From assembly GCA_951406725.2 (NCBI GenBank), contig OX597843.1, positions 10,416,001-10,480,000 on the forward strand: a stretch of DNA of 64,000 nt, given 5' to 3'. Shown piece by piece: positions 10,786 through 37,538 of this stretch (positions within the stretch are counted from its first letter, which is position 1; each line of letters opens with the position of its first letter). Under the pieces are notes generated by a model. It saw only the letters and a program-made list of their open reading frames with translations, had not been told where the DNA came from and did no database searches. This DNA comes from Octopus vulgaris (lineage: Eukaryota). The position numbers were made by a program, and so were the translations under genes.

Positions 10786-10856
<71 letters not shown>
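9497..10856 (-). mobile_element. Probable non-autonomous Helitron-like element
   Basis: CTAG end with adjacent CCCGGCGTTACCCG hairpin similar to the 1864 element; far end inferred from TTTTATATA..TAGA. Confidence 0.5.
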
Positions 10857-14170: not shown

Positions 14171-14404
14171 GAACCCGACAGGACGTTACTTTGACTTATT
14201 CATTGATATTCAAAAACGAAACGTGAGTTTTTTTGTCTGAAATAGTGTTGTTGAATTGAAAGTTAGTAGTTTATTGTTGCTGTGTTAATATTGTTATTTT
14301 GTGTCTTTTCAATAAGACGGTTAGTGGCCTTCGCGCGAAGGTTGTGTACGTAGTTCCCCCCCCGTGGGGGAATTATTGTGTGCCTTCGTGTACGAAACAC
14401 ATCC

Positions 14405-14435
<31 letters not shown>

Positions 14436-14461
14436 TTTCTACTAACGGCTGCAAAGCCAGA

Positions 14462-15875
14462 ATGTCTTTGGAAGGCAGTGAATGCAAACTGGAAGGAAAA
14501 TTCGAAATGGATTTCCCCATTACCTATTCACCCATCTCAGGTGATGAAGAATCTCAAACCTCGGGTGAGAGAAGCACGCCGGCGGTGACACCGGAAAAAG
14601 AATCGGCGGTAACGCCAGAACAAAAGGCCCCAACAAAGAAGTTTGCGGAAGTTGTTGGACGCAAACAGAAAGATATAGATATAGAAAACCTAGAGAAATA
14701 TGAAGACCTTCTAAAGAAAGAAGGAAATGAAATTGCAGTGAAAAAAGATATGGAAAAAAAGGAAGAGATAGAAAAGAAAAAGAATTATATACAAGACATA
14801 TAGCACGACTACAAAAAGCATACAAAAAGTGGAAGAATGCAAAATAGAGGAGTGCCTGAAGACAATCAGAAAAGATATCACTTATATAAACAGAGGAAGA
14901 CGGTACGGAACAGTAGAAGTGAGGTTCAGAACAGAAGAAATAGCTAAGAAGCTATCCACAGAACCTCAGAAAGCGGGAAATCTAGTCCTTCTACCCTTGT
15001 ACAAAGGAAGAAGGACTTCAAAGATAGTAATGAGAAATATTCCCCCAGAGGCAGACGCCTCATGCCTGGTGGCGGCAGTGATGCTGGGCCTGAAAGAAAA
15101 AATCAACATCCTCCAAGCTACAGTGGAGGAGGAGGGATTTTGGCAGGGCCAGATCATAACAATGGCTATACAAGCAGAGGCCCAGACTCTGGAAGAAATA
15201 CCAGAGGTGCTGAGGCTAGATGAGGAGGAGCGAGTTCTAGTATTTGTAGAAGGAAGAAAACCGAGGTGCTTCGGCTGCGGAAAGAAGGGGCACGTGAGAG
15301 CGGAGTGTCAACCAAAACCGCAGGTAGAAGAACCATCGGAGAAAGAAGAAACGGAGGAAAAAAAGGAAACCAAAGAGGTGGAAAAAGCTGCAGAAAAGGA
15401 AAAAGAAAACGAAAAAGAGGAGGGGTGGTCTAAAGTTACCAAAAAAAAACGGAAAACTGAAACCACCCCTCAAGAAGAAGAAAACCTAAAGAAAAGGAAA
15501 GAGGTTACTTCTTCATTTATGGCCATTAAGGCTACTAACAACAGACTTGTCAATGTGTTGGCAGCCATGGCCAAGGTGGAACGTATAAGGAAGATGAAAG
15601 ACTTCATCATATATAAAATAGGCCGGAAGGACTACAGGAGGATAAAATCCGAGTTCTTCCACGACGTGGGCCCTCTGAGACTGGACATGTCTCCATATCT
15701 ATACGAGGGCCTACGTCGGACTCCCCCACGAGCCAAAGAAAAAAAAATGAAGAAGAAGGCGAAACCGCCGAAAAAGCCAAACTACCGATATAAGGTAAGT
15801 GATGAACTACATTTGTGTTGGTTGTTTAAATGTGCGCGGCCTGGGATCAAGCGGGAAGCAAGGTCGCTTCCTTAA
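14462..15875 (+). CDS. ORF1 gag-like nucleic-acid-binding protein, ~470 aa (one +1 A frameshift near 14780)
   Basis: Starts MSLEGSECK; zinc knuckle CFGCGKKGHVRAEC (CX2CX4HX4C) followed by E/K-rich tail, typical of Tx1 ORF1. Confidence 0.85.
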
Positions 15876-18800
15876 TGATATCAGGTCGCGCAATTTGGAT
15901 GTTATTGTTGCTACAGAAACCCGGTTAAAGGGGCCAAGAGATCTACTCCCACTGTTTGACGGCTACGAGAGTTTTTTCTCTCCTGGCAGTCCTGCAGGCG
16001 GGAGTGGGGTGTTGGTCCTACTAAAAAGAAACCGGGTTTTGAGAAAAAGTTAATTTTTTCAGACCCAGAAGGTAGGCTGGTCGTCATGGATTTGACGTTC
16101 AGTAACGGTAAAGTTATCAGACTGGTTGCAATTTACGCACCCTGCAGTAATAATGGGCAAAGTGATTATTATCGTGATCTAGAGAACTTTCTCGGTACTT
16201 CGCATTCAATAGTTGTGCTAGGAGACTTTAACACAATTTGCAAAGCGGATGTAGATTGTGTTGGCTCGAATGATAGAAAAGGTAACACATGCTTCCTGGA
16301 ACTGCTAAGCCGCTTTGAGCTAGCAGATCCTTATAGGTTGGAATTTCCGAACGCTCCATTGTGGACATGGTCAAACAGCGACGGATCTTCCAGGTCATAC
16401 ATAGATAGAATTCTAATTAGAAAGGTAGACAGTAAAATAGCTAAGCGTCCACAGTTTTACCCGATCAGCTACAGTGATCATAAAATGGTCACTTGTAAGC
16501 TTGACATAGATAAGGTTAGAAAGAGAGGATCCGGTTACTGGAAACTTAATACGTCCCTTTTGGCGATTAAGGAGTACAGAGACCGGATTAGGACCATAAT
16601 TCAGAGGGCGCTGTCTGGTGCCATCATTAATAACAAATGGTGGTACGCCCTCAAACGAGCCATCAAGTTTGAGTCTATTAGATATAGCATAGGAGTAGTG
16701 TCTAGAGAGGCTAGAAGGGAAACTACTCTAGTTAAGGAATTAGAGGAAGCCATGAAAACTGGCTCTGCGGCTCAGGTGGCGTCCAAGAGACTGGTGTTAA
16801 ACCAGCACCTCGAGGCCAAACACATGGGTTGCATTGTCAGGGCTAGAATCCGTCATATGGGATGTGAAGGAATCAACGCCGTGAGATGGGCCCGAGTGGT
16901 GGAAGCCCGGAATGGCAACGATGCCACGATTCGATCTTTGAAGAACCAACAAGGTGAGTTGATAGACGAACCCGAGGAGATGTGTGAGGCCTTTCAGGAG
17001 CACTTCGCTCAGCTTTTCGGTGAGTGCGGCGGGCTGGATAGGAGGAGGGCCTTTACGGACCTACTCGACGGGCTGCCGCGCTTATCGGGGCGAGATGCGG
17101 AGGGCTGTGAAGGGCCAATCACGCCTGAGGAGGTGGTGGAGGCAATGGCGGACTGCGGCGCGGGCAAGGCGCCGGGTTTGGATGGTCTACCCTACGAGTT
17201 ATATAAGAATATGCCAGACTTGTTCGGGCACCTACTGGCGGAAGTCTATGCGAACTGGCAGCAGAACGGGTTGATACCCAGATCTGTGCGCCGGGGAGTG
17301 GTGACTCTCGTCAGAAAGGACCCGAGCAAGGGGGAGTGCATTGATAATTTCAGGCCCATCACTCTGCTAAACACAGAGTTGAAGATTTTGGCCAAAGTGT
17401 TATCGAAAAGATTGGCGCGTGTCGCGGATGGTCTGATCGGGGAGGCACAGACATGTGCCGTTCCGGGCAGAACCATTCAGGATAATCTCCATCTAATGCG
17501 GTACACTATAGAGGGGTTTAATAGTGATTCTGGCAAGGGTGGGGCACTGGTCCATTTAGACCAATCCAAAGCTTTTGATAGGGTCGACCATCGTTACCTG
17601 GTGTCTGCTCTGGCACAGTTCGGGCTGGGCCTTGGCTTCCTCAGGTGGATTATCCAAATTTACGACAACATCGACTCGGTAGTTCGGGTGAACGGCTTCT
17701 TGTCGAAGCCGTTCAAAATCAAACGCTCGGTTCGTCAAGGGTGTCCGCTCTCCCCGCTTTTGTACGTGATGGCTCTTGAGCCATTACTGCGAAAACTGAG
17801 CGGCATCCCGAGACAGCCAGGTAATGGAAAATCAGTGTCAGCGTACGCGGACGACATCACCATCATCGTGACCGAAATGGACCACCTATGTAAAGTAGGC
17901 AAGGCCATAGAGGATTACGAGACGGTGACAGGAGCAAAAGTTAATCGCGAAAAGTCAGTCGGCTTGCAACTCGGCACCTGGAGAGGCAAGTCGATGCCTC
18001 CTGACAGCGTCGTGGGACGTTGGACGGAGGGTCCGATTAAACTGCTAGGGGTCTGGTTCGGTCCAGACCTCCAAATAGAGAAGAATTGGGGCGAAGTAAC
18101 GAGCAAGGTGGCTGCAGTAGCCAAGACCTGGTCTAGGCGGTGGCTATCCTTGAAAGGGAGGGCGGAGGTGGCCAATGTGTTTATCGCATCGGTTATCATC
18201 TACCGCCTTTCCGTCGTTCCATGCCCTGATTCGTGGTTGACCAAGTTGGAAAGACAGCTCTTCTACTTCCTGTGGAAGGGCAGGAAACCACTTGTGAAAC
18301 GCTCTACTTGCTGTCAACAACCGTTAAAGGGTGGGCTAGGGATGCCTTGGCTGATGATGCGCAGACATGCGCTGAGGTTAAGACATCTGTGGCTCTACCT
18401 GGATGGTGAACGGGTGTGGTCTCCGTTAGCAAAACTGATGTTTCCCAAGTTCACTAGTTTCGGTGGATGGGAAACCTGGTTGAATCGTAGATCGAAACTC
18501 GGTACATGGTATACGGAGTGTCGAAAGGCCCTCCTGCTATTCCGTCGCTCGGGCAACGCCTGCGGTGGGGGTTCCACCACATTCTTCTATAGAGGGTTGG
18601 TAGAGGCGGAATGTGAAGACACCTTGGGGAAACCCTGGGTCTCGACGATAATCAGCTGGCTAGTCTGTTCCGACGTACGTTCGGGCCGAAGACTCTGGAC
18701 AACTTCCAGAAGTCTCTGGCATGGCAATGCTACAGAGGAGCTCTACCTGTTCGGGATAAACTCGCAAGGCACGGTGGCCAAGACAGTCCGATGTGTCCAA

Positions 18801-19195
18801 GATGCGGGCGGGATAGGGAAACCGTCCCGCACGCTATTGTTCATTGTTCGGACGTGTCTGAGGTGTGGGTTTATGCCGAACAGCTGTTGTCAAGCACACG
18901 AAGAGTACAGCTGTCGACTGAGTGTATTAAAAAAATTGACCCACCAGATTTCCTCGCGAAAGAAGGTAAGACTTGTTTTCTCGTTGTGGTAGCAATTGCG
19001 AAGGAGGTGATATGGAAGACGAGAATGAAAGGTATACGGTCAGGCAAGTTCATATCCGGCCCTGGGTTGATGAACTACTTCATCTACCACCTGAAAAGGA
19101 AGATAGGGCTGGAGAGAAAATGCCTGACTAAAAGAGTGTATGAAGAACGATGGAAGGATGTAGCACGGAAGTTGAGAATGGATGACACCACATAA
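15802..19195 (+). pseudogene. ORF2 copy 1, APE-RT, with two homopolymer frameshifts (~16040, ~18629); may be sequencing errors
   Basis: Same as the intact ORF2 except T5>T4 and G5>G4. Confidence 0.85.
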
Positions 19196-19681
19196 ATGTA
19201 GATCAAAACGAAACCAAAAGTATCAGTGGTGAGGCGGGGCTCGTGGGGTCCGAGCTGAACCCGCCCCCACTCCACCTGTAGTGTCTTCCGGTCTGTTTTT
19301 TCTCATTCGATTTTTATAATTTTTGCAATTTTTGTAAATTTTTGAAATTTTTAAACTCATACTTTTGTAACCTCATACGTGAATCTGACCCCACATCAGG
19401 TTGTATTGTCCCCTCTTTGTTGGCCCCTTGTGGGTAATAATAAAAGAGAACCCGACAGGACGTTACTTTGACTTATTCATTGATATTCAAAAACGAAACG
19501 TGAGTTTTTTTGTCTGAAATAGTGTTGTGGAATTGAAAGTTAGTAGTTTATTGTTGCTGTGTTAATATTGTTATTTTGTGTCTTTTCAATAAGACGGTTA
19601 GTGGCCTTCGCGCGAAGGTTGTGTACGTAGTTCCCCCCCCGTGGGGGAATTATTGTGTGCCTTCGTGTACGAAACACATCC

Positions 19682-19713
<32 letters not shown>

Positions 19714-19739
19714 TTTCTACTAACGGCTGCAAAGCCAGA

Positions 19740-21150
19740 ATGTCTTTGGAAGGCAGTGAATGCAAACTGGAAGGAAAATTCGAAATGGATTTCCCCATTA
19801 CCTATTCACCCATCTCAGGTGATGAAGAATCTCAAACCTCGGGTGAGAGAAGCACGCCGGCGGTGACACCGGAAAAAGAATCGGCGGTAACGCCAGAACA
19901 AAAGGCCCCAACAAAGAAGTTTGCGGAAGTTGTTGGACGCAAACAGAAAGATATAGATATAGAAAACCTAGAGAAATATGAAGACCTTCTAAAGAAAGAA
20001 GGAAATGAAATTGCAGTGAAAAAAGATATGGAAAAAAAGGAAGAGATAGAAAAGAAAAGAATTATATACAAGACATATAGCACGACTACAAAAAGCATAC
20101 AAAAAGTGGAAGAATGCAAAATAGAGGAGTGCCTGAAGACAATCAGAAAAGATATCACTTATATAAACAGAGGAAGACGGTTCGGAACAGTAGAAGTGAG
20201 GTTCAGAACCGAAGAAATAGCTAAGAAGCTATCCACAGAACCTCAGAAAGCGGAAATCTAGTCCTTCTACCCTTGTACAAAGGAAGAAGGACTTCAAAGA
20301 TAGTAATGAGAAATATTCCCCCAGAGGCAGACGCCTCATGCCTGGTGGCGGCAGTGATGCTGGGCCTGAAAGAAAAAATCAACATCCTCCAAGCTACAGT
20401 GGAGGAGGAGGGATTTTGGCAGGGCCAGATCATAACAATGGCTATACAAGCAGAGGCCCAGACTCTGGAAGAAATACCAGAGGTGCTGAGGCTAGATGAG
20501 GAGGAGCGAGTTCTAGTATTTGTAGAAGGAAGAAAACCGAGGTGCTTCGGCTGCGGAAAGAAGGGGCACGTGAGAGCGGAGTGTCAACCGAAACCGCAGG
20601 CAGAAGAACCGTCGGAGAAAGAAGAAACGGAGGAAAAAAAGGAAACCAAAGAGGTGGAAAAAGCTGCAGAAAAGGAAAAAGAAAACGAAAAAGAGGAGGG
20701 GTGGTCTAAAGTTACCAAAAAAAAACGGAAAACTGAAACCACCCCTCAAGAAGAAGAAAACCTAAAGAAAAGGAAAGAGGTTACTTCTTCATTTATGGCC
20801 ATTAAGGCTACTAACAACAGACTTGTCAATGTGTTGGCAGCCATGGCCAAGGTGGAACGTATAAGGAAGATGAAAGACTTCATCATATATAAAATAGGCC
20901 GGAAGGACTACAGGAGGATAAAATCCGAGTTCTTCCACGACGTGGGCCCTCTGAGACTGGACATGTCTCCATATCTATACGAGGGCCTACGTCGGACTCC
21001 CCACGAGCCAAAGAAAAAAAAATGAAGAAGAAGGCGAAACCGCCGAAAAAGCCAAACTACCGATATAAGGTAAGTGATGAACTACATTTGTGTTGGTTGT
21101 TTAAATGTGCGCGGCCTGGGATCAAGCGGGAAGCAAGGTCGCTTCCTTAA
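19740..21150 (+). CDS. ORF1 copy 2 (frameshifts near 20252 and 21000)
   Basis: Homologous to copy 1 ORF1; CCHC knuckle intact. Confidence 0.75.
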
Positions 21151-24100
21151 TGATATCAGGTCGCGCAATTTGGATGTTATTGTTGCTACAGAAACCCGGT
21201 TAAAGGGGCCAAGAGATCTACTCCCACTGTTTGACGGCTACGAGAGTTTTTTCTCTCCTGGCAGTCCTGCAGGCGGGAGTGGGGTGTTGGTCCTACTAAA
21301 AAGAAACCGGGTTTTTGAGAAAAAGTTAATTTTTTCAGACCCAGAAGGTAGGCTGGTCGTCATGGATTTGACGTTCAGTAACGGTAAAGTTATCAGACTG
21401 GTTGCAATTTACGCACCCTGCAGTAATAATGGGCAAAGTGATTATTATCGTGATCTAGAGAACTTTCTCGGTACTTCGCATTCAATAGTTGTGCTAGGAG
21501 ACTTTAACACAATTTGCAAAGCGGATGTAGATTGTGTTGGCTCGAATGATAGAAAAGGTAACACATGCTTCCTGGAACTGCTAAGCCGCTTTGAGCTAGC
21601 AGATCCTTATAGGTTGGAATTTCCGAACGCTCCATTGTGGACATGGTCAAACAGCGACGGATCTTCCAGGTCATACATAGATAGAATTCTAATTAGAAAG
21701 GTAGACAGTAAAATAGCTAAGCGTCCACAGTTTTACCCGATCAGCTACAGTGATCATAAAATGGTCACTTGTAAGCTTGACATAGATAAGGTTAGAAAGA
21801 GAGGATCCGGTTACTGGAAACTTAATACGTCCCTTTTGGCGATTAAGGAGTACAGAGACCGGATTAGGACCATAATTCAGAGGGCGCTGTCTGGTGCCAT
21901 CATTAATAACAAATGGTGGTACGCCCTCAAACGAGCCATCAAGTTTGAGTCTATTAGATATAGCATAGGAGTAGTGTCTAGAGAGGCTAGAAGGGAAACT
22001 ACTCTAGTTAAGGAATTAGAGGAAGCCATGAAAACTGGCTCTGCGGCTCAGGTGGCGTCCAAGAGACTGGTGTTAAACCAGCACCTCGAGGCCAAACACA
22101 TGGGTTGCATTGTCAGGGCTAGAATCCGTCATATGGGATGTGAAGGAATCAACGCCGTGAGATGGGCCCGAGTGGTGGAAGCCCGGAATGGCAACGATGC
22201 CACGATTCGATCTTTGAAGAACCAACAAGGTGAGTTGATAGACGAACCCGAGGAGATGTGTGAGGCCTTTCAGGAGCACTTCGCTCAGCTTTTCGGTGAG
22301 TGCGGCGGACTGGATAGGAGGAGGGCCTTTACGGACCTACTCGACGGGCTGCCGCGCTTATCGGGGCGAGATGCGGAGGGCTGTGAAGGGCCAATCACGC
22401 CTGAGGAGGTGGTGGAGGCAATGGCGGACTGCGGCGCGGGCAAGGCGCCGGGTTTGGATGGTCTACCCTACGAGTTATATAAGAATATGCCAGACTTGTT
22501 CGGGCACCTACTGGCGGAAGTCTATGCGAACTGGCAGCAGAACGGGTTGATACCCAGATCTGTGCGCCGGGGAGTGGTGACTCTCGTCAGAAAGGACCCG
22601 AGCAAGGGGGAGTGCATTGATAATTTCAGGCCCATCACTCTGCTAAACACAGAGTTGAAGATTTTGGCCAAAGTGTTATCGAAAAGATTGGCGCGTGTCG
22701 CGGATGGTCTGATCGGGGAGGCACAGACATGTGCCGTTCCGGGCAGAACCATTCAGGATAATCTCCATCTAATGCGGTACACTATAGAGGGGTTTAATAG
22801 TGATTCTGGCAAGGGTGGGGCACTGGTCCATTTAGACCAATCCAAAGCTTTTGATAGGGTCGACCATCGTTACCTGGTGTCTGCTCTGGCACAGTTCGGG
22901 CTGGGCCTTGGCTTCCTCAGGTGGATTATCCAAATTTACGACAACATCGACTCGGTAGTTCGGGTGAACGGCTTCTTGTCGAAGCCGTTCAAAATCAAAC
23001 GCTCGGTTCGTCAAGGGTGTCCGCTCTCCCCGCTTTTGTACGTGATGGCTCTTGAGCCATTACTGCGAAAACTGAGCGGCATCCCGAGACAGCCAGGTAA
23101 TGGAAAATCAGTGTCAGCGTACGCGGACGACATCACCATCATCGTGACCGAAATGGACCACCTATGTAAAGTAGGCAAGGCCATAGAGGATTACGAGACG
23201 GTGACAGGAGCAAAAGTTAATCGCGAAAAGTCAGTCGGCTTGCAACTCGGCACCTGGAGAGGCAAGTCGATGCCTCCTGACAGCGTCGTGGGACGTTGGA
23301 CGGAGGGTCCGATTAAACTGCTAGGGGTCTGGTTCGGTCCAGACCTCCAAATAGAGAAGAATTGGGGCGAGGTAACGAGCAAGGTGGCTGCAGTAGCCAA
23401 GACCTGGTCTAGGCGGTGGCTATCCTTGAAAGGGAGGGCGGAGGTGGCCAATGTGTTTATCGCATCGGTTATCATCTACCGCCTTTCCGTCGTTCCATGC
23501 CCTGATTCGTGGTTGACCAAGTTGGAAAGACAGCTCTTCTACTTCCTGTGGAAGGGCAGGAAACCACTTGTGAAACGCTCTACTTGCTGTCAACAACCGT
23601 TAAAGGGTGGGCTAGGGATGCCTTGGCTGATGATGCGCAGACATGCGCTGAGGTTAAGACATCTGTGGCTCTACCTGGATGGTGAACGGGTGTGGTCTCC
23701 GTTAGCAAAACTGATGTTTCCCAAGTTCACTAGTTTCGGTGGATGGGAAACCTGGTTGAATCGTAGATCGAAACTCGGTACATGGTATACGGAGTGTCGA
23801 AAGGCCCTCCTGCTATTCCGTCGCTCGGGCAACGCCTGCGGTGGGGGTTCCACCACATTCTTCTATAGAGGGTTGGTAGAGGCGGAATGTGAAGACACCT
23901 TGGGGGAAACCCTGGGTCTCGACGATAATCAGCTGGCTAGTCTGTTCCGACGTACGTTCGGGCCGAAGACTCTGGACAACTTCCAGAAGTCTCTGGCATG
24001 GCAATGCTACAGAGGAGCTCTACCTGTTCGGGATAAACTCGCAAGGCACGGTGGCCAAGACAGTCCGATGTGTCCAAGATGCGGGCGGGATAGGGAAACC

Positions 24101-24472
24101 GTCCCGCACGCTATTGTTCATTGTTCGGACGTGTCTGAGGTGTGGGTTTATGCCGAACAGCTGTTGTCAAGCACACGAAGAGTACAGCTGTCGACTGAGT
24201 GTATTAAAAAAATTGACCCACCAGATTTCCTCGCGAAAGAAGGTAAGACTTGTTTTCTCGTTGTGGTAGCAATTGCGAAGGAGGTGATATGGAAGACGAG
24301 AATGAAAGGTATACGGTCAGGCAAGTTCATATCCGGCCCTGGGTTGATGAACTACTTCATCTACCACCTGAAAAGGAAGATAGGGCTGGAGAGAAAATGC
24401 CTGACTAAAAGAGTGTATGAAGAACGATGGAAGGATGTAGCACGGAAGTTGAGAATGGATGACACCACATAA
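21077..24472 (+). CDS. ORF2: APE endonuclease, reverse transcriptase and C-terminal CCHC finger, 1131 aa from ATG
   Basis: APE motifs LNVRGL, ETRL, IYAP, GDFN, IDRI, SDH; Tx1-type GSGYWKLNTSLL; RT motifs KAPGLDG, FRPITLLN, DQSKAFD, QGCPLSP, YADD; CPRC..ETVPHAIVHC. Confidence 0.97.
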   Translation: MNYICVGCLNVRGLGSSGKQGRFLNDIRSRNLDVIVATETRLKGPRDLLPLFDGYESFFSPGSPAGGSGVLVLLKRNRVFEKKLIFSDPEGRLVVMDLTFSNGKVIRLVAIYAPCSNNGQSDYYRDLENFLGTSHSIVVLGDFNTICKADVDCVGSNDRKGNTCFLELLSRFELADPYRLEFPNAPLWTWSNSDGSSRSYIDRILIRKVDSKIAKRPQFYPISYSDHKMVTCKLDIDKVRKRGSGYWKLNTSLLAIKEYRDRIRTIIQRALSGAIINNKWWYALKRAIKFESIRYSIGVVSREARRETTLVKELEEAMKTGSAAQVASKRLVLNQHLEAKHMGCIVRARIRHMGCEGINAVRWARVVEARNGNDATIRSLKNQQGELIDEPEEMCEAFQEHFAQLFGECGGLDRRRAFTDLLDGLPRLSGRDAEGCEGPITPEEVVEAMADCGAGKAPGLDGLPYELYKNMPDLFGHLLAEVYANWQQNGLIPRSVRRGVVTLVRKDPSKGECIDNFRPITLLNTELKILAKVLSKRLARVADGLIGEAQTCAVPGRTIQDNLHLMRYTIEGFNSDSGKGGALVHLDQSKAFDRVDHRYLVSALAQFGLGLGFLRWIIQIYDNIDSVVRVNGFLSKPFKIKRSVRQGCPLSPLLYVMALEPLLRKLSGIPRQPGNGKSVSAYADDITIIVTEMDHLCKVGKAIEDYETVTGAKVNREKSVGLQLGTWRGKSMPPDSVVGRWTEGPIKLLGVWFGPDLQIEKNWGEVTSKVAAVAKTWSRRWLSLKGRAEVANVFIASVIIYRLSVVPCPDSWLTKLERQLFYFLWKGRKPLVKRSTCCQQPLKGGLGMPWLMMRRHALRLRHLWLYLDGERVWSPLAKLMFPKFTSFGGWETWLNRRSKLGTWYTECRKALLLFRRSGNACGGGSTTFFYRGLVEAECEDTLGETLGLDDNQLASLFRRTFGPKTLDNFQKSLAWQCYRGALPVRDKLARHGGQDSPMCPRCGRDRETVPHAIVHCSDVSEVWVYAEQLLSSTRRVQLSTECIKKIDPPDFLAKEGKTCFLVVVAIAKEVIWKTRMKGIRSGKFISGPGLMNYFIYHLKRKIGLERKCLTKRVYEERWKDVARKLRMDDTT

Positions 24473-25013
24473 ATGTAGATCAAAACGAAACCAAAAGTAT
24501 CAGTGGTGAGGCGGGGCTCGTGGGGTCCGAGCTGAACCCGCCCCCACTCCACCTGTAGTGTCTTCCGGTCTGTTTTTTCTCATTCGATTTTTATAATTTT
24601 TGCAATTTTTGTAAATTTTTGAAATTTTTAAACTCATACTTTTGTAACCTCATACGTGAATCTGACCCCACATCAGGTTGTATTGTCCCCTCTTTGTTGG
24701 CCCCTTGTGGGTAATAATAAAAGAGAACCCGACAGGACGTTACTTTGACTTATTCATTGATATTCAAAAACGAAACGTGAGTTTTTTTGTCTGAAATAGT
24801 GTTGTTGAATTGAAAGTTAGTAGTTTATTGTTGCTGTGTTAATATTGTTATTTTGTGTCTTTTCAATAAGACGGTTAGTGGCCTTCGCGCGAAGGTTGTG
24901 TACGTAGTTCCCCCCCGTGGGGGAATTATTGTGTGCCTTCGTGTACGAAACACATCCAAAAAAAAAAAAAAAAAAAAAAAAAAATATTTTCTACTAACGG
25001 CTGCAAAGCCAGA

Positions 25014-26426
25014 ATGTCTTTGGAAGGCAGTGAATGCAAACTGGAAGGAAAATTCGAAATGGATTTCCCCATTACCTATTCACCCATCTCAGGTGATGAA
25101 GAATCTCAAACCTCGGGTGAGAGAAGCACGCCGGCGGTGACACCGGAAAAAGAATCGGCGGTAACGCCAGAACAAAAGGCCCCAACAAAGAAGTTTGCGG
25201 AAGTTGTTGGACGCAAACAGAAAGATATAGATATAGAAAACCTAGAGAAATATGAAGACCTTCTAAAGAAAGAAGGAAATGAAATTGCAGTGAAAAAAGA
25301 TATGGAAAAAAAGGAAGAGATAGAAAAGAAAAGAATTATATACAAGACATACAGCACGACTACAAAAAGCATACAAAAAGTGGAAGAATGCAAAATAGAG
25401 GAGTGCCTGAAGACAATCAGAAAAGATATCACTTATATAAACAGAGGAAGACGGTTCGGAACAGTAGAAGTGAGGTTCAGAACAGAAGAAATAGCTAAGA
25501 AGCTATCCACAGAACCTCAGAAAGCGGAAATCTAGTCCTTCTACCCTTGTACAAAGGAAGAAGGACTTCAAAGATAGTAATGAGAAATATTCCCCCAGAG
25601 GCAGACGCCTCATGCCTGGTGGCGGCAGTGATGCTGGGCCTGAAAGAAAAAATCAACATCCTCCAAGCTACAGTGGAGGAGGAGGGATTTTGGCAGGGCC
25701 AGATCATAACAATGGCTATACAAGCAGAGGCCCAGACTCTGGAAGAAATACCAGAGGTGCTGAGGCTAGATGAGGAGGAGCGAGTTCTAGTATTTGTAGA
25801 AGGAAGAAAACCGAGGTGCTTCGGCTGCGGAAAGAAGGGGCACGTGAGAGCGGAGTGTCAACCGAAACCGCAGGTAGAAGAACCGTCGGAGAAAGAAGAA
25901 ACGGAGGAAAAAAAGGAAACCAAAGAGGTGGAAAAAGCTGCAGAAAAGGAAAAAGAAAACGAAAAAGAGGAGGGGTGGTCTAAAGTTACCAAAAAAAAAC
26001 GGAAAACTGAAACCACCCCTCAAGAAGAAGAAAACCTAAAGAAAAGGAAAGAGGTTACTTCTTCATTTATGGCCATTAAGGCTACTAACAACAGACTTGT
26101 CAATGTGTTGGCAGCCATGGCCAAGGTGGAACGTATAAGGAAGATGAAAGACTTCATCATATATAAAATAGGCCGGAAGGACTACAGGAGGATAAAATCC
26201 GAGTTCTTCCACGACGTGGGCCCTCTGAGACTGGACATGTCTCCATATCTATACGAGGGCCTACGTCGGACTCCCCCACGAGCCAAAGAAAAAAAAAATG
26301 AAGAAGAAGGCGAAACCGCCGAAAAAGCCAAACTACCGATATAAGGTAAGTGATGAACTACATTTGTGTTGGTTGTTTAAATGTGCGCGGCCTGGGATCA
26401 AGCGGGAAGCAAGGTCGCTTCCTTAA
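25014..26426 (+). CDS. ORF1 copy 3 (frameshifts near 25527 and 26298)
   Basis: Homologous to copy 1 ORF1. Confidence 0.75.
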
Positions 26427-29400
26427 TGATATCAGGTCGCGCAATTTGGATGTTATTGTTGCTACAGAAACCCGGTTAAAGGGGCCAAGAGATCTACTCC
26501 CACTGTTTGACGGCTACGAGAGTTTTTTCTCTCCTGGCAGTCCTGCAGGCGGGAGTGGGGTGTTGGTCCTACTAAAAAGAAACCGGGTTTTTGAGAAAAA
26601 GTTAATTTTTTCAGACCCAGAAGGTAGGCTGGTCGTCATGGATTTGACGTTCAGTAACGGTAAAGTTATCAGACTGGTTGCAATTTACGCACCCTGCAGT
26701 AATAATGGGCAAAGTGATTATTATCGTGATCTAGAGAACTTTCTCGGTACTTCGCATTCAATAGTTGTGCTAGGAGACTTTAACACAATTTGCAAAGCGG
26801 ATGTAGATTGTGTTGGCTCGAATGATAGAAAAGGTAACACATGCTTCCTGGAACTGCTAAGCCGCTTTGAGCTAGCAGATCCTTATAGGTTGGAATTTCC
26901 GAACGCTCCATTGTGGACATGGTCAAACAGCGACGGATCTTCCAGGTCATACATAGATAGAATTCTAATTAGAAAGGTAGACAGTAAAATAGCTAAGCGT
27001 CCACAGTTTTACCCGATCAGCTACAGTGATCATAAAATGGTCACTTGTAAGCTTGACATAGATAAGGTTAGAAAGAGAGGATCCGGTTACTGGAAACTTA
27101 ATACGTCCCTTTTGGCGATTAAGGAGTACAGAGACCGGATTAGGACCATAATTCAGAGGGCGCTGTCTGGTGCCATCATTAATAACAAATGGTGGTACGC
27201 CCTCAAACGAGCCATCAAGTTTGAGTCTATTAGATATAGCATAGGAGTAGTGTCTAGAGAGGCTAGAAGGGAAACTACTCTAGTTAAGGAATTAGAGGAA
27301 GCCATGAAAACTGGCTCTGCGGCTCAGGTGGCGTCCAAGAGACTGGTGTTAAACCAGCACCTCGAGGCCAAACACATGGGCTGCATTGTCAGGGCTAGAA
27401 TCCGTCATATGGGATGTGAAGGAATCAACGCCGTGAGATGGGCCCGAGTGGTGGAAGCCCGGAATGGCAACGATGCCACGATTCGATCTTTGAAGAACCA
27501 ACAAGGTGAGTTGATAGACGAACCCGAGGAGATGTGTGAGGCCTTTCAGGAGCACTTCGCTCAGCTTTTCGGTGAGTGCGGCGGACTGGATAGGAGGAGG
27601 GCCTTTACGGACCTACTCGACGGGCTGCCGCGCTTATCGGGGCGAGATGCGGAGGGCTGTGAAGGGCCAATCACGCCTGAGGAGGTGGTGGAGGCAATGG
27701 CGGACTGCGGCGCGGGCAAGGCGCCGGGTTTGGATGGTCTACCCTACGAGTTATATAAGAATATGCCAGACTTGTTCGGGCACCTACTGGCGGAAGTCTA
27801 TGCGAACTGGCAGCAGAACGGGTTGATACCCAGATCTGTGCGCCGGGGAGTGGTGACTCTCGTCAGAAAGGACCCGAGCAAGGGGGAGTGCATTGATAAT
27901 TTCAGGCCCATCACTCTGCTAAACACAGAGTTGAAGATTTTGGCCAAAGTGTTATCGAAAAGATTGGCGCGTGTCGCGGATGGTCTGATCGGGGAGGCAC
28001 AGACATGTGCCGTTCCGGGCAGAACCATTCAGGATAATCTCCATCTAATGCGGTACACTATAGAGGGGTTTAATAGTGATTCTGGCAAGGGTGGGGCACT
28101 GGTCCATTTAGACCAATCCAAAGCTTTTGATAGGGTCGACCATCGTTACCTGGTGTCTGCTCTGGCACAGTTCGGGCTGGGCCTTGGCTTCCTCAGGTGG
28201 ATTATCCAAATTTACGACAACATCGACTCGGTAGTTCGGGTGAACGGCTTCTTGTCGAAGCCGTTCAAAATCAAACGCTCGGTTCGTCAAGGGTGTCCGC
28301 TCTCCCCGCTTTTGTACGTGATGGCTCTTGAGCCATTACTGCGAAAACTGAGCGGCATCCCGAGACAGCCAGGTAATGGAAAATCAGTGTCAGCGTACGC
28401 GGACGACATCACCATCATCGTGACCGAAATGGACCACCTATGTAAAGTAGGCAAGGCCATAGAGGATTACGAGACGGTGACAGGAGCAAAAGTTAATCGC
28501 GAAAAGTCAGTCGGCTTGCAACTCGGCACCTGGAGAGGCAAGTCGATGCCTCCTGACAGCGTCGTGGGACGTTGGACGGAGGGTCCGATTAAACTGCTAG
28601 GGGTCTGGTTCGGTCCAGACCTCCAAATAGAGAAGAATTGGGGCGAGGTAACGAGCAAGGTGGCTGCAGTAGCCAAGACCTGGTCTAGGCGGTGGCTATC
28701 CTTGAAAGGGAGGGCGGAGGTGGCCAATGTGTTTATCGCATCGGTTATCATCTACCGCCTTTCCGTCGTTCCATGCCCTGATTCGTGGTTGACCAAGTTG
28801 GAAAGACAGCTCTTCTACTTCCTGTGGAAGGGCAGGAAACCACTTGTGAAACGCTCTACTTGCTGTCAACAACCGTTAAAGGGTGGGCTAGGGATGCCTT
28901 GGCTGATGATGCGCAGACATGCGCTGAGGTTAAGACATCTGTGGCTCTACCTGGATGGTGAACGGGTGTGGTCTCCGTTAGCAAAACTGATGTTTCCCAA
29001 GTTCACTAGTTTCGGTGGATGGGAAACCTGGTTGAATCGTAGATCGAAACTCGGTACATGGTATACGGAGTGTCGAAAGGCCCTCCTGCTATTCCGTCGC
29101 TCGGGCAACGCCTGCGGTGGGGGTTCCACCACATTCTTCTATAGAGGGTTGGTAGAGGCGGAATGTGAAGACACCTTGGGGGAAACCCTGGGTCTCGACG
29201 ATAATCAGCTGGCTAGTCTGTTCCGACGTACGTTCGGGCCGAAGACTCTGGACAACTTCCAGAAGTCTCTGGCATGGCAATGCTACAGAGGAGCTCTACC
29301 TGTTCGGGATAAACTCGCAAGGCACGGTGGCCAAGACAGTCCGATGTGTCCAAGATGCGGGCGGGATAGGGAAACCGTCCCGCACGCTATTGTTCATTGT

Positions 29401-29748
29401 TCGGACGTGTCTGAGGTGTGGGTTTATGCCGAACAGCTGTTGTCAAGCACACGAAGAGTACAGCTGTCGACTGAGTGTATTAAAAAAATTGACCCACCAG
29501 ATTTCCTCGCGAAAGAAGGTAAGACTTGTTTTCTCGTTGTGGTAGCAATTGCGAAGGAGGTGATATGGAAGACGAGAATGAAAGGTATACGGTCAGGCAA
29601 GTTCATATCCGGCCCTGGGTTGATGAATTACTTCATCTACCACCTGAAAAGGAAGATAGGGCTGGAGAGAAAATGCCTGACTAAAAGAGTGTATGAAGAA
29701 CGATGGAAGGATGTAGCACGGAAGTTGAGAATGGATGACACCATATAA
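26353..29748 (+). CDS. ORF2 APE-RT-CCHC, intact
   Basis: Uninterrupted ORF with the same motifs as copy 2. Confidence 0.97.
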   Translation: MNYICVGCLNVRGLGSSGKQGRFLNDIRSRNLDVIVATETRLKGPRDLLPLFDGYESFFSPGSPAGGSGVLVLLKRNRVFEKKLIFSDPEGRLVVMDLTFSNGKVIRLVAIYAPCSNNGQSDYYRDLENFLGTSHSIVVLGDFNTICKADVDCVGSNDRKGNTCFLELLSRFELADPYRLEFPNAPLWTWSNSDGSSRSYIDRILIRKVDSKIAKRPQFYPISYSDHKMVTCKLDIDKVRKRGSGYWKLNTSLLAIKEYRDRIRTIIQRALSGAIINNKWWYALKRAIKFESIRYSIGVVSREARRETTLVKELEEAMKTGSAAQVASKRLVLNQHLEAKHMGCIVRARIRHMGCEGINAVRWARVVEARNGNDATIRSLKNQQGELIDEPEEMCEAFQEHFAQLFGECGGLDRRRAFTDLLDGLPRLSGRDAEGCEGPITPEEVVEAMADCGAGKAPGLDGLPYELYKNMPDLFGHLLAEVYANWQQNGLIPRSVRRGVVTLVRKDPSKGECIDNFRPITLLNTELKILAKVLSKRLARVADGLIGEAQTCAVPGRTIQDNLHLMRYTIEGFNSDSGKGGALVHLDQSKAFDRVDHRYLVSALAQFGLGLGFLRWIIQIYDNIDSVVRVNGFLSKPFKIKRSVRQGCPLSPLLYVMALEPLLRKLSGIPRQPGNGKSVSAYADDITIIVTEMDHLCKVGKAIEDYETVTGAKVNREKSVGLQLGTWRGKSMPPDSVVGRWTEGPIKLLGVWFGPDLQIEKNWGEVTSKVAAVAKTWSRRWLSLKGRAEVANVFIASVIIYRLSVVPCPDSWLTKLERQLFYFLWKGRKPLVKRSTCCQQPLKGGLGMPWLMMRRHALRLRHLWLYLDGERVWSPLAKLMFPKFTSFGGWETWLNRRSKLGTWYTECRKALLLFRRSGNACGGGSTTFFYRGLVEAECEDTLGETLGLDDNQLASLFRRTFGPKTLDNFQKSLAWQCYRGALPVRDKLARHGGQDSPMCPRCGRDRETVPHAIVHCSDVSEVWVYAEQLLSSTRRVQLSTECIKKIDPPDFLAKEGKTCFLVVVAIAKEVIWKTRMKGIRSGKFISGPGLMNYFIYHLKRKIGLERKCLTKRVYEERWKDVARKLRMDDTI

Positions 29749-30290
29749 ATGTAGATCAAAACGAAACCAAAAGTATCAGTGGTGAGGCGGGGCTCGTGGG
29801 GTCCGAGCTGAACCCGCCCCCACTCCACCTGTAGTGTCTTCCGGTCTGTTTTTTCTCATTCGATTTTTATAATTTTTGCAATTTTTGTAAATTTTTGAAA
29901 TTTTTAAACTCATACTTTTGTAACCTCATACGTGAATCTGACCCCACATCAGGTTGTATTGTCCCCTCTTTGTTGGCCCCTTGTGGGTAATAATAAAAGA
30001 GAACACCGATAGGACGTTACTTTGACTTATTCATTGATTCTCAAAAACGAAACGTGAGTTTTTTGTCTGAAATAGTGTTGTTAAATTGAAAGTTAATAGT
30101 TTATTGTTGCTGTGTTAATATTGTTATTTTGTGTCTTTTCAATAAGACGGTTAGTGGCCTTCGCGCGAAGGTTGTGTACGTAGTTCCCCCCCGTGGGGGA
30201 ATTATTGTGTGCCTTCGTGTACGAAACACATTCAAAAACAAAAAAAAAAAAAAAAAAAAAATATTTTCTACTAACGGCTGCAAAGCCAGA

Positions 30291-31702
30291 ATGTCTTTGG
30301 AAGGCAGTGAATGCAAACTGGAAGGAAAATTCGAAATGGATTTCCCCATTACCTATTCACCCATCTCAGGTGATGAAGAATCTCAAACCTCGGGTGAGAG
30401 AAGCACGCCGGCGGTGACACCGGAAAAAGAATCGGCGGTAACGCCAGGACAAAAGGCCCCAACAAAGAAGTTTGCGGAAGTTGTTGGACGCAAACAAAAA
30501 AATATAGATATAGAAAACCTAGAGAAATATGAAGACCTTCTAAAGAAAGAAGGAAATGAAATTGCAGTGAAAAAAGATATGGAAAAAAAGGAAGAGATAG
30601 AAAATAAAAGAATTATATACAAGACATACAGCATGACTACAAAAAGCATACAAAAAGTGGAAGAATGCAAAATAGAGGAGTGCCTGAAGACAATCAGAAA
30701 AGATATCACTTATATAAACAGAGGAAGGCGGTTCGGAACAGTAGAAGTGAGGTTCAGAACCGAAGAAATAGCTAAGAAGCTATCCACAGAACCTCAGAAA
30801 GCGGGAAATCTAGTCCTTCTACCCTTGTACAAAGGAAGAAGGACTTCAAAGATAGTAATGAGAAATATTCCCCCAGAGGCAGACGCCTCATGCCTGGTGG
30901 CGGCAGTGATGCTGGGCCTGAAAGAAAAATCAACATCCTCCAAGCTACAGTGGAGGAGGAGGGATTTTGGCAGGGCCAGATCATAACAATGGCTATACAA
31001 GCAGAGGCCCAGACTCTGGAAGAAATACCAGAGGTGCTGAGGCTAGATGAGGAGGAGCGAGTTCTAGTATTTGTAGAAGGAAGAAAACCGAGGTGCTTCG
31101 GCTGCGGAAAGAAGGGGCACGTGAGAGCGGAGTGTCAACCAAAACCGCAGGTAGAAGAACCGTCGGAGAAAGAAGAAACGGAGGAAAAAAAGGAAACCAA
31201 AGAGGTGGAAAAAGCTGCAGAAAAGGAAAAAGAAAACGAAAAAGAGGAGGGGTGGTCTAAAGTTACCAAAAAAAAACGGAAAACTGAAACCACCCCTCAA
31301 GAAGAAGAAAACCTAAAGAAAAGGAAAGAGGTTACTTCTTCATTTATGGCCATTAAGGCTACTAACAACAGACTTGTCAATGTGTTGGCAGCCATGGCCA
31401 AGGTGGAACGTATAAGGAAGATGAAAGACTTCATCATATATAAAATAGGCCGGAAGGACTACAGGAGGATAAAATCCGAGTTCTTCCACGACGTGGGCCC
31501 TCTGAGACTGGACATGTCTCCATATCTATACGAGGGCCTACGTCGGACTCCCCCACGAGCCAAAGAAAAAAAAATGAAGAAGAAGGCGAAACCGCCGAAA
31601 AAGCCAAACTACCGATATAAGGTAAGTGATGAACTACATTTGTGTTGGTTGTTTAAATGTGCGCGGCCTGGGATCAAGCGGGAAGCAAGGTCGCTTCCTT
31701 AA
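30291..31702 (+). CDS. ORF1 copy 4 (one -1 A frameshift near 30929)
   Basis: Homologous to copy 1 ORF1. Confidence 0.8.
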
Positions 31703-34700
31703 TGATATCAGGTCGCGCAATTTGGATGTTATTGTTGCTACAGAAACCCGGTTAAAGGGGCCAAGAGATCTACTCCCACTGTTTGACGGCTACGAGAGTT
31801 TTTTCTCTCCTGGCAGTCCTGCAGGCGGGAGTGGGGTGTTGGTCCTACTAAAAAGAAACCGGGTTTTTGAGAAAAAGTTAATTTTTTCAGACCCAGAAGG
31901 TAGGCTGGTCGTCATGGATTTGACGTTCAGTAACGGTAAAGTTATCAGACTGGTTGCAATTTACGCACCCTGCAGTAATAATGGGCAAAGTGATTATTAT
32001 CGTGATCTAGAGAACTTTCTCGGTACTTCGCATTCAATAGTTGTGCTAGGAGACTTTAACACAATTTGCAAAGCGGATGTAGATTGTGTTGGCTCGAATG
32101 ATAGAAAAGGTAACACATGCTTCCTGGAACTGCTAAGCCGCTTTGAGCTAGCAGATCCTTATAGGTTGGAATTTCCGAACGCTCCATTGTGGACATGGTC
32201 AAACAGCGACGGATCTTCCAGGTCATACATAGATAGAATTCTAATTAGAAAGGTAGACAGTAAAATAGCTAAGCGTCCACAGTTTTACCCGATCAGCTAC
32301 AGTGATCATAAAATGGTCACTTGTAAGCTTGACATAGATAAGGTTAGAAAGAGAGGATCCGGTTACTGGAAACTTAATACGTCCCTTTTGGCGATTAAGG
32401 AGTACAGAGACCGGATTAGGACCATAATTCAGAGGGCGCTGTCTGGTGCCATCATTAATAACAAATGGTGGTACGCCCTCAAACGAGCCATCAAGTTTGA
32501 GTCTATTAGATATAGCATAGGAGTAGTGTCTAGAGAGGCTAGAAGGGAAACTACTCTAGTTAAGGAATTAGAGGAAGCCATGAAAACTGGCTCTGCGGCT
32601 CAGGTGGCGTCCAAGAGACTGGTGTTAAACCAGCACCTCGAGGCCAAACACATGGGTTGCATTGTCAGGGCTAGAATCCGTCATATGGGATGTGAAGGAA
32701 TCAACGCCGTGAGATGGGCCCGAGTGGTGGAAGCCCGGAATGGCAACGATGCCACGATTCGATCTTTGAAGAACCAACAAGGTGAGTTGATAGACGAACC
32801 CGAGGAGATGTGTGAGGCCTTTCAGGAGCACTTCGCTCAGCTTTTCGGTGAGTGCGGCGGGCTGGATAGGAGGAGGGCCTTTACGGACCTACTCGACGGG
32901 CTGCCGCGCTTATCGGGGCGAGATGCGGAGGGCTGTGAAGGGCCAATCACGCCTGAGGAGGTGGTGGAGGCAATGGCGGACTGCGGCGCGGGCAAGGCGC
33001 CGGGTTTGGATGGTCTACCCTACGAGTTATATAAGAATATGCCAGACTTGTTCGGGCACCTACTGGCGGAAGTCTATGCGAACTGGCAGCAGAACGGGTT
33101 GATACCCAGATCTGTGCGCCGGGGAGTGGTGACTCTCGTCAGAAAGGACCCGAGCAAGGGGGAGTGCATTGATAATTTCAGGCCCATCACTCTGCTAAAC
33201 ACAGAGTTGAAGATTTTGGCCAAAGTGTTATCGAAAAGATTGGCGCGTGTCGCGGATGGTCTGATCGGGGAGGCACAGACATGTGCCGTTCCGGGCAGAA
33301 CCATTCAGGATAATCTCCATCTAATGCGGTACACTATAGAGGGGTTTAATAGTGATTCTGGCAAGGGTGGGGCACTGGTCCATTTAGACCAATCCAAAGC
33401 TTTTGATAGGGTCGACCATCGTTACCTGGTGTCTGCTCTGGCACAGTTCGGGCTGGGCCTTGGCTTCCTCAGGTGGATTATCCAAATTTACGACAACATC
33501 GACTCGGTAGTTCGGGTGAACGGCTTCTTGTCGAAGCCGTTCAAAATCAAACGCTCGGTTCGTCAAGGGTGTCCGCTCTCCCCGCTTTTGTACGTGATGG
33601 CTCTTGAGCCATTACTGCGAAAACTGAGCGGCATCCCGAGACAGCCAGGTAATGGAAAATCAGTGTCAGCGTACGCGGACGACATCACCATCATCGTGAC
33701 CGAAATGGACCACCTATGTAAAGTAGGCAAGGCCATAGAGGATTACGAGACGGTGACAGGAGCAAAAGTTAATCGCGAAAAGTCAGTCGGCTTGCAACTC
33801 GGCACCTGGAGAGGCAAGTCGATGCCTCCTGACAGCGTCGTGGGACGTTGGACGGAGGGTCCGATTAAACTGCTAGGGGTCTGGTTCGGTCCAGACCTCC
33901 AAATAGAGAAGAATTGGGGCGAGGTAACGAGCAAGGTGGCTGCAGTAGCCAAGACCTGGTCTAGGCGGTGGCTATCCTTGAAAGGGAGGGCGGAGGTGGC
34001 CAATGTGTTTATCGCATCGGTTATCATCTACCGCCTTTCCGTCGTTCCATGCCCTGATTCGTGGTTGACCAAGTTGGAAAGACAGCTCTTCTACTTCCTG
34101 TGGAAGGGCAGGAAACCACTTGTGAAACGCTCTACTTGCTGTCAACAACCGTTAAAGGGTGGGCTAGGGATGCCTTGGCTGATGATGCGCAGACATGCGC
34201 TGAGGTTAAGACATCTGTGGCTCTACCTGGATGGTGAACGGGTGTGGTCTCCGTTAGCAAAACTGATGTTTCCCAAGTTCACTAGTTTCGGTGGATGGGA
34301 AACCTGGTTGAATCGTAGATCGAAACTCGGTACATGGTATACGGAGTGTCGAAAGGCCCTCCTGCTATTCCGTCGCTCGGGCAACGCCTGCGGTGGGGGT
34401 TCCACCACATTCTTCTATAGAGGGTTGGTAGAGGCGGAATGTGAAGACACCTTGGGGGAAACCCTGGGTCTCGACGATAATCAGCTGGCTAGTCTGTTCC
34501 GACGTACGTTCGGGCCGAAGACTCTGGACAACTTCCAGAAGTCTCTGGCATGGCAATGCTACAGAGGAGCTCTACCTGTTCGGGATAAACTCGCAAGGCA
34601 CGGTGGCCAAGACAGTCCGATGTGTCCAAGATGCGGGCGGGATAGGGAAACCGTCCCGCACGCTATTGTTCATTGTTCGGACGTGTCTGAGGTGTGGGTT

Positions 34701-35024
34701 TATGCCGAACAGCTGTTGTCAAGCACACGAAGAGTACAGCTGTCGACTGAGTGTATTAAAAAAATTGACCCACCAGATTTCCTCGCGAAAGAAGGTAAGA
34801 CTTGTTTTCTCGTTGTGGTAGCAATTGCGAAGGAGGTGATATGGAAGACGAGAATGAAAGGTATACGGTCAGGCAAGTTCATATCCGGCCCTGGGTTGAT
34901 GAACTACTTCATCTACCACCTGAAAAGGAAGATAGGGCTGGAGAGAAAATGCCTGACTAAAAGAGTGTATGAAGAACGATGGAAGGATGTAGCACGGAAG
35001 TTGAGAATGGATGACACCATATAA
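31629..35024 (+). CDS. ORF2 APE-RT-CCHC, intact
   Basis: Uninterrupted ORF with all catalytic motifs. Confidence 0.97.
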   Translation: MNYICVGCLNVRGLGSSGKQGRFLNDIRSRNLDVIVATETRLKGPRDLLPLFDGYESFFSPGSPAGGSGVLVLLKRNRVFEKKLIFSDPEGRLVVMDLTFSNGKVIRLVAIYAPCSNNGQSDYYRDLENFLGTSHSIVVLGDFNTICKADVDCVGSNDRKGNTCFLELLSRFELADPYRLEFPNAPLWTWSNSDGSSRSYIDRILIRKVDSKIAKRPQFYPISYSDHKMVTCKLDIDKVRKRGSGYWKLNTSLLAIKEYRDRIRTIIQRALSGAIINNKWWYALKRAIKFESIRYSIGVVSREARRETTLVKELEEAMKTGSAAQVASKRLVLNQHLEAKHMGCIVRARIRHMGCEGINAVRWARVVEARNGNDATIRSLKNQQGELIDEPEEMCEAFQEHFAQLFGECGGLDRRRAFTDLLDGLPRLSGRDAEGCEGPITPEEVVEAMADCGAGKAPGLDGLPYELYKNMPDLFGHLLAEVYANWQQNGLIPRSVRRGVVTLVRKDPSKGECIDNFRPITLLNTELKILAKVLSKRLARVADGLIGEAQTCAVPGRTIQDNLHLMRYTIEGFNSDSGKGGALVHLDQSKAFDRVDHRYLVSALAQFGLGLGFLRWIIQIYDNIDSVVRVNGFLSKPFKIKRSVRQGCPLSPLLYVMALEPLLRKLSGIPRQPGNGKSVSAYADDITIIVTEMDHLCKVGKAIEDYETVTGAKVNREKSVGLQLGTWRGKSMPPDSVVGRWTEGPIKLLGVWFGPDLQIEKNWGEVTSKVAAVAKTWSRRWLSLKGRAEVANVFIASVIIYRLSVVPCPDSWLTKLERQLFYFLWKGRKPLVKRSTCCQQPLKGGLGMPWLMMRRHALRLRHLWLYLDGERVWSPLAKLMFPKFTSFGGWETWLNRRSKLGTWYTECRKALLLFRRSGNACGGGSTTFFYRGLVEAECEDTLGETLGLDDNQLASLFRRTFGPKTLDNFQKSLAWQCYRGALPVRDKLARHGGQDSPMCPRCGRDRETVPHAIVHCSDVSEVWVYAEQLLSSTRRVQLSTECIKKIDPPDFLAKEGKTCFLVVVAIAKEVIWKTRMKGIRSGKFISGPGLMNYFIYHLKRKIGLERKCLTKRVYEERWKDVARKLRMDDTI

Positions 35025-35468
35025 ATGTAGATCAAAACGAAACCAAAAGTATCAGTGGTGAGGCGGGGCTCGTGGGGTCCGAGCTGAACCCGCCCCCACT
35101 CCACCTGTAGTGTCTTCCGGTCTGTTTTTTCTCATTCGATTTTTATAATTTTTGCAATTTTTGTAAATTTTTGAAATTTTTAAACTCATACTTTTGTAAC
35201 CTCATACGTGAATCTGACCCCACATCAGGTTGTATTGTCCCCTCTTTGTTGGCCCCTTGTGGGTAATAATAAAAGAAAATCACCATATAGTGCCTTACTG
35301 CTTTCTGCTGGATTTTACCTCGAGATAGGAACCCTGAGGAAGGAGGGCTGAATTTCGAATACTTCGTACAACAAACGGCTGCAGGTTAGGAAAAAAAATT
35401 TAATCGCCTCTTTCAATTTAGGTTTTTATTTTTCATGCTTATATTCGTATTTCATTGTTATGTTTATA

Positions 35469-36041: not shown

Positions 36042-36515
36042 TATTTCTATATTTTTATCATGAAATTCTTAATATAAATATGTGGATATTCGTATGGAAT
36101 AATACCTCATGTGCTACATCTGAATTTTCTTGTCTGAATGTTTTAAGACAAATATCCGAAATTTTTATCGTATACCACATTTTATTAATACTTAGCTCAT
36201 ATACGGAGACAAAAATGTTGTACTATATACTGCAGGTTATCTCCATTAAAATTATATTTAGCATTAGAATTCTTCAAGTAGTATAAAAATGGTTATTGTC
36301 TGCATCATTCGAAAGCGAAATAAATTTTGCATAAGGTGTAAAAGATAAAAATAATTTGTATGGTGTTAGTAACAAAATATTTTGTAAGAAATAGAACTTT
36401 TATCGTCTGTCTTAAATATATTTTCGCCAGTGTATATATCTCAGGTCATCCCATAAGTTCTGTCTGAATTTTGGATAAAGAATACAAGTGATCAAATGTT
36501 ATATTTAATTGAAAG

Positions 36516-37509: not shown

Positions 37510-37538
37510 GTTGAAAGGGTTTTAATCAAAGCAATTTT

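Follow-up and report, generated by a model that had tools for sequence, protein, structure and literature searches.

How a retrotransposon came to lie in four complete, nearly identical copies head to tail, with silent differences that group these copies in mutually incompatible ways, is the question raised by a 64,000-nucleotide stretch of the Octopus vulgaris genome (assembly GCA_951406725.2, contig OX597843.1, positions 10,416,001 to 10,480,000, here called the window). Self-comparison of the window gave a 5277-bp period from 12838 to 35279, whose units are 99.5–99.8% identical. They form an array of one 5'-truncated unit (U0) and four full-length units (U1–U4) of a long interspersed element (LINE). 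The array starts at 12838, before the range covered by an initial annotation of this DNA, and U0 was thus outside that range. The reading that we favour, with some reserve, is that the array grew by successive insertions, made by related, selected and recombining sources, into a target that each insertion renews. Locus names used below begin with a contig label, C30 being the contig of the window (10416001–10480000). The features concerned are the following, with ORF for open reading frame, RT for reverse transcriptase and indel for insertion or deletion.

7884..12837, forward strand: left arm of the host repeat; it matches other host copies, and the 5' end of the host falls about 1.9 kb upstream of window position 1.
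11223–12837, reverse strand: decayed RT-bearing relic in the left host arm, inside 7884..12837.
12838..14169, forward strand: U0, the 3'-terminal 1332 bp of a LINE unit truncated at its 5' end; its junction with the left flank shows a 2-bp microhomology.
14170..14217, and again at about 19447, 24724 and 30000, forward strand: host-derived 5' leader, 48 bp, containing the internal-junction insertion register.
14170..19446, forward strand: U1, full-length; ORF1 from 14462; ORF1 and ORF2 broken by single-base homopolymer indels.
19447..24723, forward strand: U2, full-length; ORF1 from 19740; open ORF2 at 21077–24472, 1131 aa.
24724..29999, forward strand: U3, full-length; ORF1 from 25014; open ORF2 at 26353–29748.
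30000..35275, forward strand: U4, full-length; open ORF2 at 31629–35024; original host junction; a different leader allele.
35276..37883, forward strand: right arm of the ~9-kb host repeat, beginning within the host leader and followed by an assembly gap (37884–37983).

The element is an L1-group APE-type non-LTR retrotransposon. Its ORF2 (1131 aa, open in U2–U4) carries an APE endonuclease (PF03372), an RT (PF00078) and a zf-RVT domain (PF13966), all above cut-off, and its best solved-structure match is L1 ORF2p (E 4e-71), with R2 at 1e-24. ORF1, whose frame is broken by homopolymer indels in each unit, presents a weak CCHC knuckle under the Pfam cut-off (E 0.13), and its look-alikes in the atlas are zf-CCHC and ZCCHC3-like clusters (0.89–0.92). 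Target duplications of 16–18 bp, 5'-truncated copies and the lack of long terminal repeats (LTRs) are hallmarks of the family. Membership of the R1 clade proper was rejected, as the insertion is not in 28S ribosomal DNA (rDNA): none of five loci spanning three target sites gave an Rfam hit at the gathering score, and the flanks are a 9-kb dispersed repeat.

The alignment of the five units has 38 variable columns, comprising 25 substitutions and 13 indels, the latter nearly all in homopolymer runs. Twenty-four substitutions were scored, a C within the poly-A run of U4 being left out: seven fall outside the coding sequence, twelve in ORF1 (6 silent, 6 replacement) and five in ORF2 (4 silent, 1 replacement). 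Five sites split U1–U4 two to two and cover all three possible partitions, namely TAT/TAC and the final T/I of ORF2 (12|34), ACA/ACC (13|24), and one CCA/CCG together with GGG/GGA (14|23). With only about 24 changes spread over 5.3 kb, chance is not expected to produce three recurrent hits. The incompatible silent sites had been pointed out by the initial annotation, and all 12 positions that it quoted carry the quoted bases; the other silent changes that it named (GAA/GAG, CCA/CCG, GGT/GGC and AAC/AAT) are present as well, and the T/I change is indeed the only replacement in ORF2. Its description of the changes as mostly synonymous is accurate only in part. Six replacements in ORF1 had been missed (E/G 25171, N/D 25224, K/N 25328, T/M 25357, Y/F 25456 and A/V 25875, in U3 positions), so that 10 of the 17 coding changes are silent, but this still exceeds the 24–31% expected under neutrality (p 0.002–0.016; for ORF1 alone p 0.045–0.13). 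The ratio of replacement to silent polymorphism (pN/pS) is about 0.27 for the coding sites of the window units, not near 1. Two other sources of substitutions were rejected: adenosine-to-inosine editing, as there is no sense-strand excess of A>G (5 A>G and 5 T>C among private changes, 24 and 23 among polarised ones), and CpG decay, which concerns 3 of the 24 sites.

The window units differ from each other at 7–15 positions. Private changes amount to 0–1 per unit, and of the 19 scored variants confined to a single unit, U4 holds 12. For 21 of the 24 scored sites both alleles were found at other loci (in one case only in an old copy of 94% identity), and three sites are private to the window. 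A rolling-circle concatemer of one template is rejected by the 7–15 differences, the three partitions and the shared alleles. Plain unequal crossover, which the initial annotation had also argued against, would leave identical neighbours; none is seen here in spite of so few private changes, and neighbouring units are identical in 0 of 17 pairs across arrays. Each window unit is pieced together from stretches, the longest of 3.6 kb, that match different outside copies exactly. Thus U1 equals C30b2 over 720–1224, including two alleles found nowhere else, U2 equals C22b3 over 720–1411, U3 equals C58_4 over 606–1150, and U4 equals C22b1 over 729–2003.

The same mosaicism is a property of the whole family. 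In the four-gamete test, 623 of 2556 site pairs are incompatible among 28 young copies (clustering p 0.008) and 277 of 1225 with one copy per locus (11 copies, permutation p 0.039); in the latter set, incompatibility rises with distance from 0.15 to 0.30. Within C27a alone no recombination was detected (16 of 66 pairs incompatible, p 0.56). On the best tree, 52 of 143 variable sites are homoplastic and cost 95 extra steps; with one copy per locus the figures are 24 of 105 sites and 29 steps, whereas only 1.7–7 doubly hit sites are expected by chance on average for 135 changes. Family homoplasy is far above what a tree allows. These comparisons leave out C22b2, partial units at gaps, and ten older or divergent copies outside the core set. 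In older copies the RT region is almost identical and the 5' part diverges by 5–9%, with the opposite pattern of blocks in two C58 units, which argues that modules are exchanged between subfamilies. C27a and C27b were retained as separate loci, their flanks differing beyond the host end, and C58, an unplaced contig of 50 kb, could still duplicate one of them. Unit C22b2 (C22:14229571–14234678) is internally scrambled with a low-identity patch and is probably a local misassembly.

Could the mosaic be an artefact of phase, with real units but a consensus that mixes reads of neighbouring units or of the two parental alleles? The unit haplotypes are read from the assembly consensus, in which uncorrected homopolymer errors do occur: the six homopolymer indels tested all represent the rare state among 41 copies, contigs from public runs carry the common state at several of them, and the homopolymer indels in the ORFs are probably consensus errors. 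Adjacent units moreover share indels. However, mixing within an array cannot make contiguous tracts that match different distant loci, the homoplasy remains with one copy per locus, and kilobase blocks of 5–8% divergence are swapped between subfamilies. Contigs of independent public runs also carry the alternative letter at several variable sites. These runs consist of 31-mer contigs; on 12300–17500, four of them give family-wide letters without locus phase, their allele depths are unreliable (common alleles being absent), and a search for the U1-only haplotype (14845–14970, at 100% likeness) returned nothing in the four runs, an uninformative result. We consider a phase artefact improbable.

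The position of the copies bears on how they came to be stacked. Genome-wide, the exact 3'-end motif has 49 occurrences, and the surroundings of all of them were inspected. Thirty-seven of these 3' ends abut the same host leader, 8 lie at other targets, and the remaining 4 come from other families that share the tail; head-to-tail arrays of 2 to 8 or more units were found at nine other loci. The leader belongs to a dispersed repeat that spans about 9.2 kb; its 5' end is sharp and its microsatellite tails differ from copy to copy. An upstream motif of this repeat, which resembles CCAAT, octamer and TATA boxes and may be a promoter, occurs at 70 places, and a downstream motif at 53. Forty of the 70 upstream sites, chosen to exclude those already examined, were inspected by eye: 27 are unoccupied, and in 12 other LINE-like sequence follows immediately. 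In 12 of 20 other host copies, also judged by eye, a related 3' tail lies just before the downstream motif. The full-length copies in C22b and C27a/b start, by eye, at a word about 33–37 nt behind the TATA-like box of the promoter-side copies.

Single copies (C30c, C8, C4 and C1b), on and off target, are flanked by target duplications of 16–18 bp, and in the C22b, C24a and C27c arrays the target duplication is repeated at each junction. Host-leader sequence is present at all four window junctions, likewise in other arrays. The internal junctions of the window have the register at which C30b2, a copy of the same subfamily, joins host DNA, and this register can be a DNA cut site because host DNA follows C30b2 there. 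Compared with the paralog C30c (C30:7.96 Mb), the window is 5.7 kb short: it lacks 1.75 kb of host DNA, together with the promoter-like motif in it, and the initial 3.9 kb of U0. This locus retains no target duplication, its left flank being deleted. The shortfall reflects either a last insertion that was truncated and deleted part of its target, or a deletion that came later. The layout of four full-length units followed by a 5'-truncated one at the far end is also the order predicted if a single integration had occurred, with the RT jumping end to end over five RNAs of one cell. Such template jumps, known for R2 (cited in PMC4494074), would account for similarity within arrays and for large arrays, and the junction is close to the inferred RNA 5' end. 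Yet internal junctions of C22b, C24a and C27c share the register of the final host junction and hold the target duplication, as repeated insertion into DNA would predict, and a deletion with microhomology accounts just as well for the end of U0. We give this explanation very little credence.

In the serial insertion that we prefer, U4, the most distinct of the window units and apparently the founder, would have landed first, at the leader of a dispersed host repeat. Each later copy would have entered, by target-primed reverse transcription, the host-derived leader at the 5' end of the previous copy; every inserted leader would recreate the target, and occupied sites would thus be favoured for further growth. 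The initial annotation had offered no mechanism of stacking. That units are not identical and that mixed trains occur favours separate insertion events. The array would grow leftwards, towards the TATA-like putative host promoter, which would transcribe the nearest unit. In mixed trains the identities to U3, counted from the promoter side, are 99.0/97.7/96.3%, 96.2/91.5%, 94.9/89.1% and 95.2/89.6%; the copy nearest the promoter side is the closer to the young type, which supports this direction. At the window locus, the last event or a later deletion may have removed the putative promoter, and the array is, with this motif gone, probably a dead end. The sources would be several closely related lineages active in one period and themselves recombinant, with exchanged tracts from hundreds of bases to kilobases in length, which would explain the incompatible splits; the recombination could proceed by template switching or by DNA conversion. 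Selection for mobility would filter them, hence the silent excess. In keeping with this, strictly private coding alleles in 30 copies comprise 20 silent and 8 replacement changes (6 and 2 of them from one copy), which points to many sources under selection and not to decay in place.

Several observations weigh against this interpretation. Within-array distances are about 10–11 for the window, C22b and C27a, versus 27–30 between loci (on average 27 from the window units), and this contrast is even along the element (0.46–0.70 in all regions). An endonuclease type as the sole cause of array similarity is thus rejected. U1–U4 share an allele pair at 713/719 that is lacking in their closest outside relatives, a leader allele is private to U1–U3, and adjacent units have two homopolymer deletions in common (U2 and U3; U0 and U1), which is what conversion or shared reads would give. 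Array sizes are overdispersed, as four loci have 4 or more units when a Poisson distribution expects 0.2 or fewer. C58 has its more divergent units on the promoter side, and incompatibility is already 15–23% below 100 bp. Finally, shared ORF2 variants of the whole family (8 silent, 21 replacement) are not silent-biased. The proposal of the initial annotation, that the units come from a pool of active, recombining sources, is therefore kept in a narrower form: shared alleles, silent enrichment and excess homoplasy, with incompatible pairs abundant family-wide, agree with a pool, but units drawn at random from the family would not be so similar within an array, and the pool is not the whole family. 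Selection on the sources likewise agrees with the silent-enriched window sites but not with the shared ORF2 variants.

The same observations bring forward another history, in which a double insertion seeds the array, unequal crossover expands it, and the shared alleles are brought in by gene conversion, with neighbours as well as other loci as donors. Within-array similarity, overdispersed array sizes, identical junctions within arrays, the private leader allele of U1–U3 and the indels common to adjacent units all fit it, and it is a known route for R1 and hobo arrays (PMC5932611). On the other hand, it has to face the absence of identical neighbours noted above, and distance does not increase with the number of steps along the arrays (10.6, 10.6, 12.5 and 9.3). 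Several conversions per unit would be required in a very short time, and mixed-subfamily trains exist. We consider it unlikely; serial insertion and its rivals can act together.

The host repeat (examples are C24:35334248–35343400, C15:24861043–24870400, and window 7884–12837 and 35276–37883) is a non-coding composite of an RT relic, mariner-type fragments and short repeats, with 95–99% identity between copies and unique flanks, and it looks to have been retroposed as a whole. Terminal inverted repeats were sought in it and none was found, and it was rejected as a transposon of that kind. A known RNA gene as target was also rejected: the host leader reached no Rfam family at the gathering score (five loci, three target sites), and the upstream part matches the promoter of the U2 gene (not to be confused with unit U2) only in short words, by eye. 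At least a dozen other LINE-like families (L082–L121) use the same leader in slightly shifted registers, some in mixed trains. Four host promoter-like motifs lie in tandem with a spacing of about 10 kb at C4:19600063–19631429. At C10:43625809–43640342, two trains of the family stand back to back in opposite orientation, and their truncated 5' ends meet at 43630568–43630640. The left host arm in the window contains a 3.4-kb direct duplication of 96% identity (231–3605 and 3971–7398).

LINE families are usually treated as clonal lineages descending from few master copies. Here the variants of one array can be traced to tracts at other loci, so that the family provides a natural record of LINE recombination and target change, with the order of insertion written along each array. 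Such arrays are also a warning, as they may be read as satellites or mis-phased in assemblies. Shared replacements in ORF2 are concentrated in the endonuclease (11 replacement, 2 silent; p 0.008 versus ORF1, uncorrected and post hoc), and endonuclease haplotypes (ORF2 codons 2–231) sort with subfamily and junction register. S199T is among these variants, and S199 aligns with S202 of L1, an anchor of the target-reading hairpin (PMC1950540). Tentatively, and with rather low expectation, one may imagine the arrays as a breeding ground, where lineages stack behind a borrowed host promoter and swap segments, and where the promoter-adjacent chimera becomes the next source; the family would then behave as a sexual-like population, ORF1 being under purifying selection and the endonuclease diversifying as subfamilies shift their cut register. 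Thirteen recently active L1-Tx1 families are reported in an octopus annotation (PMC13282606), whose supplement may list this one; in the literature we found no account of this LINE family or of allele pools in LINE arrays.

Among known systems, the telomeric HeT-A and TART elements of Drosophila (PMC5932611) form polar head-to-tail chains by consecutive additions from many lineages, as proposed for this family, but here the sites are internal, cut by an endonuclease and flanked by target duplications, instead of chromosome ends, and no host function is indicated. We call the element an L1/Tx1-type LINE by resemblance, as 0 of 33 homologs are named Tx1; its preference for a multicopy target, described above, is a Tx1-like trait. 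A relative with 58% ORF2 identity sits as a full-length copy within a U2 cluster, where it is inserted at +1 of one U2 gene with a 14-bp duplication.

C3:20812065–20817622: U2-inserted relative (L150), at the first base of the U2 gene.

Tx1 families target other transposons and U2: Tx1L in Tx1D of Xenopus, Tx1-Mar with SINEU-3 in crocodilians, and Keno in U2 are described as cases of such LINEs preferring another repeat or a small-RNA gene, with SINEU-3 tandems arising around the duplication by sequential insertion and a proposed transcription from flanking DNA (PMC4494074). The tandems presented in the accessible part of that paper are, however, those of a short interspersed element, with no multi-copy arrays of intact autonomous elements and no analysis of allele pools or recombination, and our host repeat has no detectable DNA-transposon ends. 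The closest parallel is R1 in the 28S rDNA of Drosophila, also a site-specific APE-type LINE whose head-to-tail copies are separated by target sequence (PMC2718515, PMC5932611). New R1 copies enter the duplicated target that precedes the resident copy on its 5' side (PMC2718515), and double insertion followed by expansion is described as general in Drosophila (PMC5932611), so that stacking itself is already known. The array of the window works like an R1 tandem array, yet it is not R1. Its target is the leader of a dispersed mobile repeat and not rDNA, with a cut register that varies between subfamilies, and its arrays occur at many loci and reach 8 or more units. Whereas R1B subfamilies are reported as little recombined (1 of 115 informative plasmid ends; PMC2718515), the octopus family is strongly mosaic.

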